Shown: positions 10,655-10,990 of the stretch, in pieces
Layout: each line of letters begins with the position of its first letter
Numbering within the stretch: position 1 is the stretch's first letter
Assembly (NCBI GenBank): GCA_000004695.1
Contig: CM000151.3
Span: 3,936,001 to 4,000,000, forward strand
DNA from: Dictyostelium discoideum
Taxonomy: Eukaryota
DNA length: 64,000 nt
Direction: 5' to 3'
The notes under the pieces: generated by a model
What the model was told of the DNA's origin: nothing
What the model saw: the letters and a program-made list of their open reading frames with translations, nothing else
Databases searched by the model: none
Made by a program: the position numbers and the translations under genes

Positions 10655-10990
10655 ACCTGGGTATTAAATAAATTATTTTAAAATAAAATTTAAATTTATA
10701 TAACTTTTTTTTTTTTTTTTTTTTTTTTATTATTAGAATTTTAATATGAAGTTGGAGTATTAATATGGTTATTATAACTATCATTTTCTAAATTTAAAGA
10801 TTTATTAAATAAATTATTTTAAAATAAGATTTAAATTTAGTAATTTTTTTTTTTGTTTCTAATAAATATTTTATATAATTTTATTATTAGAATTTGAGGA
10901 GGATGAAGTTGGAGTATTAATATTGTTATTATTATTATTATTATTATTATTATTATTATTATTATTATTATTATTATTATTATCATTATT
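10655..10990. repeat. Tandem segmental repeat: three diverged copies of the 3' end of the MFS transporter gene plus its downstream flank (about 60 bp, 130 bp and the genuine gene end).
   Basis: Copy 1 at 10662-10720: AAATAAATTATTTTAAAATAAAATTTAAATTTATATAAC. Copy 2 at 10732-10860: ATTATTAGAATTTTAATATGAAGTTGGAGTATTAATATGGTTATTATAACTATCATTTTCTAAATTTAAAGATTTATTAAATAAATTATTTTAAAATAAGATTTAAATTTAGTAA. The genuine coding 3' end at 10886-11040: ATTATTAGAATTTGAGGAGGATGAAGTTGGAGTATTAATATTGTTATTATT...TTTTCTAAATTTAATGATTTATTATAATTTATTAAATAATTATT. Confidence 0.7.

Follow-up and report, generated by a model that had tools for sequence, protein, structure and literature searches.

Microhomology-mediated tandem duplication (MTD) was described in S. 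pombe and later in many organisms (PMC8639346; bioRxiv 10.64898/2026.02.28.708716). The distance between the paired microhomologies ranges from 3 to 500 nt, with a peak at ~150 nt in S. pombe, where the events are mostly subclonal and quickly reversible (PMC8639346). Slippage at (AAT)n and poly-Asn tracts is known from Dictyostelium (PMC7466956, PMC9234386), and a high slippage rate is documented for its genome (PMC7466956).

Here, we analyzed a 64,000 nt (64 kb) stretch of Dictyostelium discoideum AX4 DNA, hereafter the window, to which all positions refer unless another locus is named; it is 78% A+T. In the window, a segment of ~150–200 nt that includes the stop codon of a gene for an MFS transporter is doubled head to tail, giving two copies. 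We compared the syntenic locus in six further assemblies of dictyostelids: D. cf. discoideum ACTFIY (L001), two that are labelled D. discoideum (L003, GCA_054859355.1; L004, GCA_054859385.1), D. citrinum (L005), D. dimigraforme (L006), and D. firmibasis (L007).

The locus resembles an MTD in four respects. A unique segment has gone from one copy to two that are adjacent, colinear, and head to tail; the single-copy state is found at the same site in relatives (L001, L005, L006, and L007); the unit, 183 nt in ACTFIY and 141 and 208 nt in AX4, falls within the 3–500 nt range; and a short identical or nearly identical sequence, found at each end of the segment in the single-copy state, occurs three times once the segment is doubled. 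Unlike those of an MTD, however, the arms here are AT-only, match at 15 of 16 positions, and lie 10 nt off the junction, and the exact match of 4–5 nt at the junction is not significant relative to local background. Also unlike the S. pombe events, the MFS duplication is old, with ~9% divergence between the copies, and is common to three diverged genomes. Unequal sister-chromatid exchange and replication slippage between short direct repeats, the classical explanation of small tandem duplications, yield the same product and share the need for flanking direct repeats, and from sequence alone they are indistinguishable from MTD or template switching; neither recombination intermediates nor reciprocal deletion alleles were observed. 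The slippage of (AAT)n and poly-Asn tracts acts at the same place, where the AAT run of copy 1 varies from 4 to 37 units, but the 141-nt event differs from it in doubling complex, non-repetitive sequence, including a stop codon, rather than changing the length of a microsatellite. Very probably, the locus records a single ancient event, specific to one lineage, that raised the copy number in tandem from one to two and is likely of slippage or exchange origin, and in which the live copy has stayed intact while the relic decays.

The host gene and its neighbors

The gene that carries the duplication has two exons on the minus strand (Table 1). Translation across the splice junction (YYIT/MSIFG, with the slash marking the junction) agrees with ortholog P0001, and the spliced protein is 616 aa long. 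It matched Pfam MFS_1 (PF07690) with 125.8 bits, above the gathering cut-off of 33.4 (E = 2.4e-36). The top-scoring NCBIfam branches were the L-lactate MFS transporter family NF049980 (266 bits, below the cut-off of 320) and the OFA subfamily TIGR00890 (oxalate/formate antiporter; 168 bits, below the cut-off of 375); by curated threshold the protein is outside the L-lactate and OFA families, though nearest to those branches. Bacterial homologs named L-lactate MFS or oxalate-formate antiporter are ~29% identical to it. When a protein collection was searched with the AX4 protein, the best match was the ACTFIY ortholog, and the exact spliced sequence was not found.

The syntenic gene order is mppA, the MFS gene, and then the next gene. 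The window encodes mppA (the mitochondrial processing peptidase alpha subunit), and this product is 100% identical to the D. discoideum AX4 protein. The next gene lies on the same (minus) strand at 9480-9986, with its ATG at 9986 and a protein start of MESVKNRIYKTQEHVHHQDH...; its orthologs have 404–427 residues and no Pfam match on record, and a T30/A30 run at 9994-10023 is found directly upstream of the ATG. Within the MFS gene itself, a second and longer poly-Asn run, (TAT)46 at 11857-11995, is located in the central loop of the protein, and AX4 is longer here by 93–111 nt compared with ACTFIY, L003, and L004.

Table 1. The MFS gene, its duplicated 3' end, and the associated short repeats, in window coordinates
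Feature	Position	Strand	Remarks
MFS (OFA/L-lactate-type) gene, exon 1	12505..12811	minus	ATG at 12811; sequence read
MFS gene, intron, 90 nt	12504-12415	minus	GTATGT...AG
MFS gene, last exon (exon 2)	10871..12414	minus	ORF 10871..12415; splice acceptor and frame worked out
MFS gene, stop codon TAA	10873-10871	minus	stop of copy 1
Left short direct repeat AATAATTATTTAATA	11021..11035	minus	within coding sequence, 10 nt upstream of unit start
Copy 1, 208 nt	10803..11010	minus	last 46 codons, stop, and 68 nt of 3' flank
Copy 1, 46 codons	11010-10874	minus	
Copy 1, 3' flank	10870-10803	minus	
(AAT)18 poly-Asn microsatellite	10928..10981	minus	copy 1 only
Junction short repeat AATAATTTATTTAATA	10803..10818	minus	closes copy 1
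Copy 2, 141 nt	10662..10802	minus	non-coding relic; abuts copy 1
Distal short repeat AATAATTTATTTAATA	10662..10677	minus	closes copy 2, then CCCAGG

Two copies at the gene end

Apart from trinucleotide and homopolymer noise, a self dot-plot of 10600-11100 gave three long off-diagonals, at offsets of 141 (10661-10706), 157 (10745-10764), and 208 (10724-10796); the step of 51 nt between the latter two corresponds to 17 additional ATT units in the gene-proximal copy. The 21-mer ATATTAATACTCCAACTTCAT occurs twice in the 64 kb window (10746-66 and 10903-23), compared with 0.03 occurrences expected, and a 36-mer from the flank also occurs twice (10662-97 and 10803-38), compared with 0.00 expected. 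Default local alignment was misled by the (ATT)n tract, and the copies were aligned using MAFFT with the AAT and A runs collapsed, giving 124 alignable columns, 91.1% of them identical, and 37 gap columns.

On the gene strand, the coding end of copy 1 reads ...NKSLNLENNND(N)20 INTPTSSSSNSNNKII and then the stop, and its 68-nt 3' flank terminates in TTTTAAAATAATTTATTTAATA. In addition to (AAT)18, copy 1 contains (AAT)3 at 10985-10993, with a GAT between the two runs. Copy 2 starts with AATCTTTAAATTTAGAAAATGATAGTTATAATAACCATATTAATACTCCAACTTCATATTAAAATTCTAATAATAAA, followed by a run of A24 (10705-10728) in place of the A11 of copy 1, and then by the repeated flank up to ...TTTATTTAATA, directly after which comes the unique sequence CCCAGG. 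It holds at most 2 AAT units and is without ~25 nt that surround the original stop codon. Its in-frame translation comprises 20 codons, KSLNLENDSYNNHINTPTSY, and ends at a premature TAA (10743-10741).

An earlier note, made from this DNA alone, had described ordered, colinear copies of the MFS 3' coding end and flank directly downstream of the gene, and the diagonals at 141, 157, and 208 bear this out: they are colinear and have unique, complex cores, and are not the low-complexity similarity that the note named as the contrary outcome. The alignment likewise reproduces its estimate of ~90 percent identity with small indels, the loss of the (AAT)n from the copy (18 units in copy 1 compared with at most 2 in copy 2), and, in the reading of copy 2 given above, a decayed coding fragment with a stop codon beyond the real one. 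The note had the right locus, but its extent of 10655-10990 is corrected to 10662-11010 (11035 if the left motif is included), and although the coding end is duplicated as claimed, the segment takes in 46 codons and not approximately 50.

TRF, run down to a minimum score of 30, did not report a 141-nt period. Scanning 9900-11300 and 9000-13000 against Rfam (E up to 1) and for tRNAs gave no matches, ruling out a known RNA gene as the explanation. Reading the sequence of the coding part of copy 1, we found no GT dinucleotide in it, and alternative splicing or an alternative 3' exon into copy 2 is therefore unlikely.

Immediately beyond the duplicated unit, at 10656-10661, is a small GC-containing island, with CCTGGG as its plus-strand and TAATACCCAGG as its minus-strand reading. 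The island is conserved amid a spacer that is otherwise AT-only: it is identical in ACTFIY, L003, and L004, while D. citrinum has TAATACCCAG and D. dimigraforme has TAATACTCAG.

Single-copy and two-copy states in related genomes

We observed the two-copy state in AX4, L003, and L004, and the single-copy state in ACTFIY, D. citrinum, D. dimigraforme, and D. firmibasis. Over the gene end and the whole downstream intergenic region, ACTFIY aligned with AX4 at 90% identity, with copy 2 as an insertion in AX4; the single unit of ACTFIY spans 7728-7910 of its locus. A marker scan of loci L001-L004 found the distinctive pieces of the unit at the orthologous position only. Together with the uniqueness of these pieces in the 64 kb window, this rules out a dispersed element. 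The comparison with relatives that the earlier note had suggested thus recovers both states at one site, in keeping with its view of a local tandem duplication.

L003 and L004 are 96.1% and 96.4% identical to AX4, respectively, over ~7.6 kb of aligned locus (window 7490-15640), and their mppA proteins share 96% identity with AX4 mppA. The divergence at the locus seems high for isolates of one species and may be a sign that the D. discoideum complex contains cryptic species.

Between strains, identity was 97–99% for copy 1 and 90–99% for copy 2, as compared with 84–91% between copy 1 and copy 2. Each copy type has derived states of its own: all copy 1 sequences share a TCC insertion and AAATCTT, and all copy 2 sequences share CAT, the premature TAA, and the lost stop-codon segment. 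The copies cluster by position and not by strain; the duplication therefore predates the divergence of AX4, L003, and L004. Copy 2 is more eroded in L003 and L004 than in AX4, with an 11-nt deletion at the copy junction in both assemblies and additional substitutions. The difference of AX4 from L003 amounts to 8.5% in copy 2 and 2.6% in copy 1, as counted over only ~120 sites, and the faster change of copy 2 fits relaxed constraint on that copy.

The longest AAT run at the site measured 18, 10, 26, 4, 17, and 37 units in six genomes, among them 4 in ACTFIY, 17 in D. citrinum, and 37 in D. dimigraforme. The direction of change is ambiguous, since the run is long in both outgroups, D. citrinum and D. 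dimigraforme, and short in ACTFIY alone. The idea that copy 2 is a fossil of the state before (AAT)n expansion was rejected as unreliable.

Age of the duplication

On parsimony, the duplication is probably younger than the split from ACTFIY. We also considered that it is older, having arisen in the ancestor of D. discoideum and ACTFIY, and was collapsed by reverse slippage in ACTFIY. The divergence between copy 1 and copy 2 (8.9%) is about that between AX4 and ACTFIY in the region (7.6–9.2%), and is as large as that of either copy from ACTFIY (7.6% and 9.2%), as an earlier origin would predict; inspection of the copy alignment found no derived sites that unite both AX4 copies against ACTFIY, which also speaks for it, as does the report that MTDs revert readily (PMC8639346). 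However, an earlier origin requires two events and not one, and the alignment of ACTFIY is clean, showing one unit and no scar. Copies that are ~9% diverged are, moreover, poor substrates for precise collapse. Taken together, we consider the earlier origin unlikely and retain a single event in the D. discoideum lineage.

Consequences for the gene and a possible 3'-end role

Since the duplicated segment begins in coding sequence and ends in the flank, the upstream copy retains the frame, the stop, and the proximal flank. The MFS protein is unchanged as a result of copy 1 retaining its frame and stop. Judging from its decay, copy 2 appears to have no function.

It may instead be that copy 2 has been retained as a doubled putative 3'-end or terminator module, either as a tandem poly(A)/termination site or as a back-up site, and would shield the promoter of the next same-strand gene (ATG 9986) from read-through. 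The terminal 36-nt element AAATTTAAATYTTATTTTAAAATAATTTATTTAATA is well retained, matching at 35/36 positions between the AX4 copies and at 36/36 between copy 2 and ACTFIY, compared with ~90% identity for the surrounding intergenic DNA; this good retention may be taken as the sole hint of a functional 3' element. Against this, the element is unrecognizable in D. citrinum, D. dimigraforme, and D. firmibasis. The copy junction of AX4 forms an AATAAA hexamer at 10806-10801, 65–70 nt past the stop codon, which would suit a terminator, but the hexamer is found in AX4 only and is missing in L003 and L004; AATAAA is also frequent by chance in DNA of 78% AT, with four occurrences in 10640-10900. Lastly, the two-copy arrangement has persisted in three diverged genomes, as might be expected of a retained module, but copy 2 evolves ~3 times faster than copy 1 between strains and has acquired strain-specific deletions, including at the junction. 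A literature search on Dictyostelium poly(A) signals returned nothing usable. We regard a retained terminator module as quite improbable, and favor the reading of copy 2 as a decaying relic.

By itself, the duplication is of little significance. It does offer a clean, natural, and datable small tandem duplication across a stop codon, with the one-copy and two-copy states both preserved in sister genomes, in a genome that ranks among the most AT-rich and slippage-prone of eukaryotes. It is also an example of a harmless duplication, in which the upstream copy holds the frame and the stop and the redundant copy decays quickly relative to the live one, and could provide one data point for a genome-wide survey of the birth and decay of tandem duplications in dictyostelids. 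Two cautions follow: for annotation, that the real C-terminus is closely followed by a pseudo-C-terminus, and for repeat callers, that the duplication is missed by TRF.

Copy number, boundary motifs, and mechanism

Two short repeats bracket the unit of ACTFIY: AATAATTATTTAATA ends 10 nt short of it, and AATAATTTATTTAATA makes up its last 16 nt. The 16-nt motif AATAATT(T)ATTTAATA is accordingly present at both unit ends in the unduplicated ACTFIY, the left repeat AATAATTATTTAATA included, and at three sites in AX4 (the short repeats of Table 1). An MTD, or unequal exchange between short direct repeats, would be expected to leave such an arrangement (PMC8639346; bioRxiv 10.64898/2026.02.28.708716). 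Recurrence of this motif with a few flanking bases, three times and at unit-like spacing, could be read as two successive duplications giving three copies, and the offset-141 diagonal of the dot-plot, which spans the flank part, might seem to agree. Yet the third occurrence extends over only ~16 nt before the unique CCCAGG..., which is orthologous to the post-unit sequence of ACTFIY, and the left-hand motif is coding sequence already found in unduplicated genomes. Alignment to ACTFIY thus refutes the three-copy reading, which we hold to be very improbable. The gene end had previously been said to recur twice more; there is one extra copy, and the supposed third is the end motif at 11021-35, 10803-18, and 10662-77.

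It is next to impossible that the similarity is due to chance in AT-rich low-complexity DNA, to faulty assembly, or to retro-insertion of a fragment of the mRNA 3' end: although the region is at least 78% AT and rich in homopolymer and microsatellite runs, TRF gave no 141-nt period, and the A24 of copy 2 superficially resembles a poly(A) tail, the complex exact matches of 21 and 36 nt are each found twice compared with 0.03 and 0.00 expected, the presence of both copies in the independent assemblies L003 and L004 rules out an artefact, and the A run, which is A11 in copy 1 and A18 at the same position in ACTFIY, is ancestral, with copy 2 running past it into the duplicated flank, so that A24 is not a poly(A) tail and a retrocopy is rejected.

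The duplication is genuine and ordinary, another instance of a well-known type of mutation. We propose that the segment straddling the MFS stop codon, of ~150–190 nt, was doubled in the D. discoideum lineage when short AT-rich direct repeats at its two ends served for replication slippage, template switching, or unequal sister-chromatid exchange, a microhomology-mediated type of duplication. Slippage or unequal crossing-over had also been proposed in the earlier note. Support is good for local slippage or unequal exchange as the class of event, whereas the exact pathway is one that we infer. The AX4 copies meet at ...TTTAATA/AATCTTT... (with the slash marking the junction). This junction could have formed in a single step via a microhomology of 4–5 nt (TAAT/TAATA), or in two, by an exchange inside the 15/16 repeat and a later slippage deletion of 10 nt. 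Afterward, the downstream copy has decayed by gaining a premature TAA, losing the stop-codon segment, expanding its A run, and, in other strains, suffering further deletions. The (AAT)n of the live copy, absent from the relic, changes length quickly and independently.

At 15/16, the boundary repeat is not perfect, and 10 nt separate it from the junction proper, where the exact microhomology is only 4–5 nt (TAAT/TAATA). Among random position pairs at the same spacing, 2.6% across the window match at least as well (15/16 or better), rising to 9% at an AT content of at least 85% and to 33% at an AT content of at least 95%. The boundary repeat is therefore compatible with the proposed mechanism but is not evidence for it, and the boundary microhomology is not statistically compelling.

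Indels, tandem arrays, and neighboring repeats

Over ~10 kb aligned between AX4 and ACTFIY, the MFS duplication was the only indel of at least 25 nt that involved complex sequence; the other indels of this size consisted of microsatellite, homopolymer, or other AT-rich low-complexity sequence. The evidence for a special recombination hotspot at the MFS gene end, judged from this one locus, is thin.

Independent small tandem arrays were also observed at this gene end in two relatives. In ACTFIY, ~4 copies of a 10-nt unit, AAAATTATAT, at 7797-7836 of the locus cover the last codons across the stop codon, and in D. firmibasis ~4 copies of a 15/30-nt unit, TTAGAAAATAATAAT, lie over the stop codon at 4453-4569. 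These arrays fit a slippage-prone, AT-rich, and weakly constrained C-terminal tail in a slippage-prone genome.

Further downstream of the MFS gene, an exact 32-nt direct repeat, AAAAATTAGTAAACCACAAAAAATTCTTTTTT, is present on the minus strand at 10316-10347 and 10545-10576. The two sites are 229 nt apart, and the pair has no counterpart elsewhere in the window. Between the two repeats (10415-10548) lies an AT-rich palindrome of ~125 nt, with a DNA fold of -30.8 kcal/mol (z = -5.3), the center of which contains an inverted copy of the repeat core, TTGTGGTTT. Both repeats are exact in L003 and L004, ACTFIY has one exact and one near copy, and D. citrinum, D. dimigraforme, and D. firmibasis each have a single near-identical copy. 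The region appears to be an older local duplication, in direct-inverted-direct order, of a conserved non-coding element. Located 330–590 nt upstream of the ATG of the next gene (9986), the element may be a candidate cis-regulatory element.
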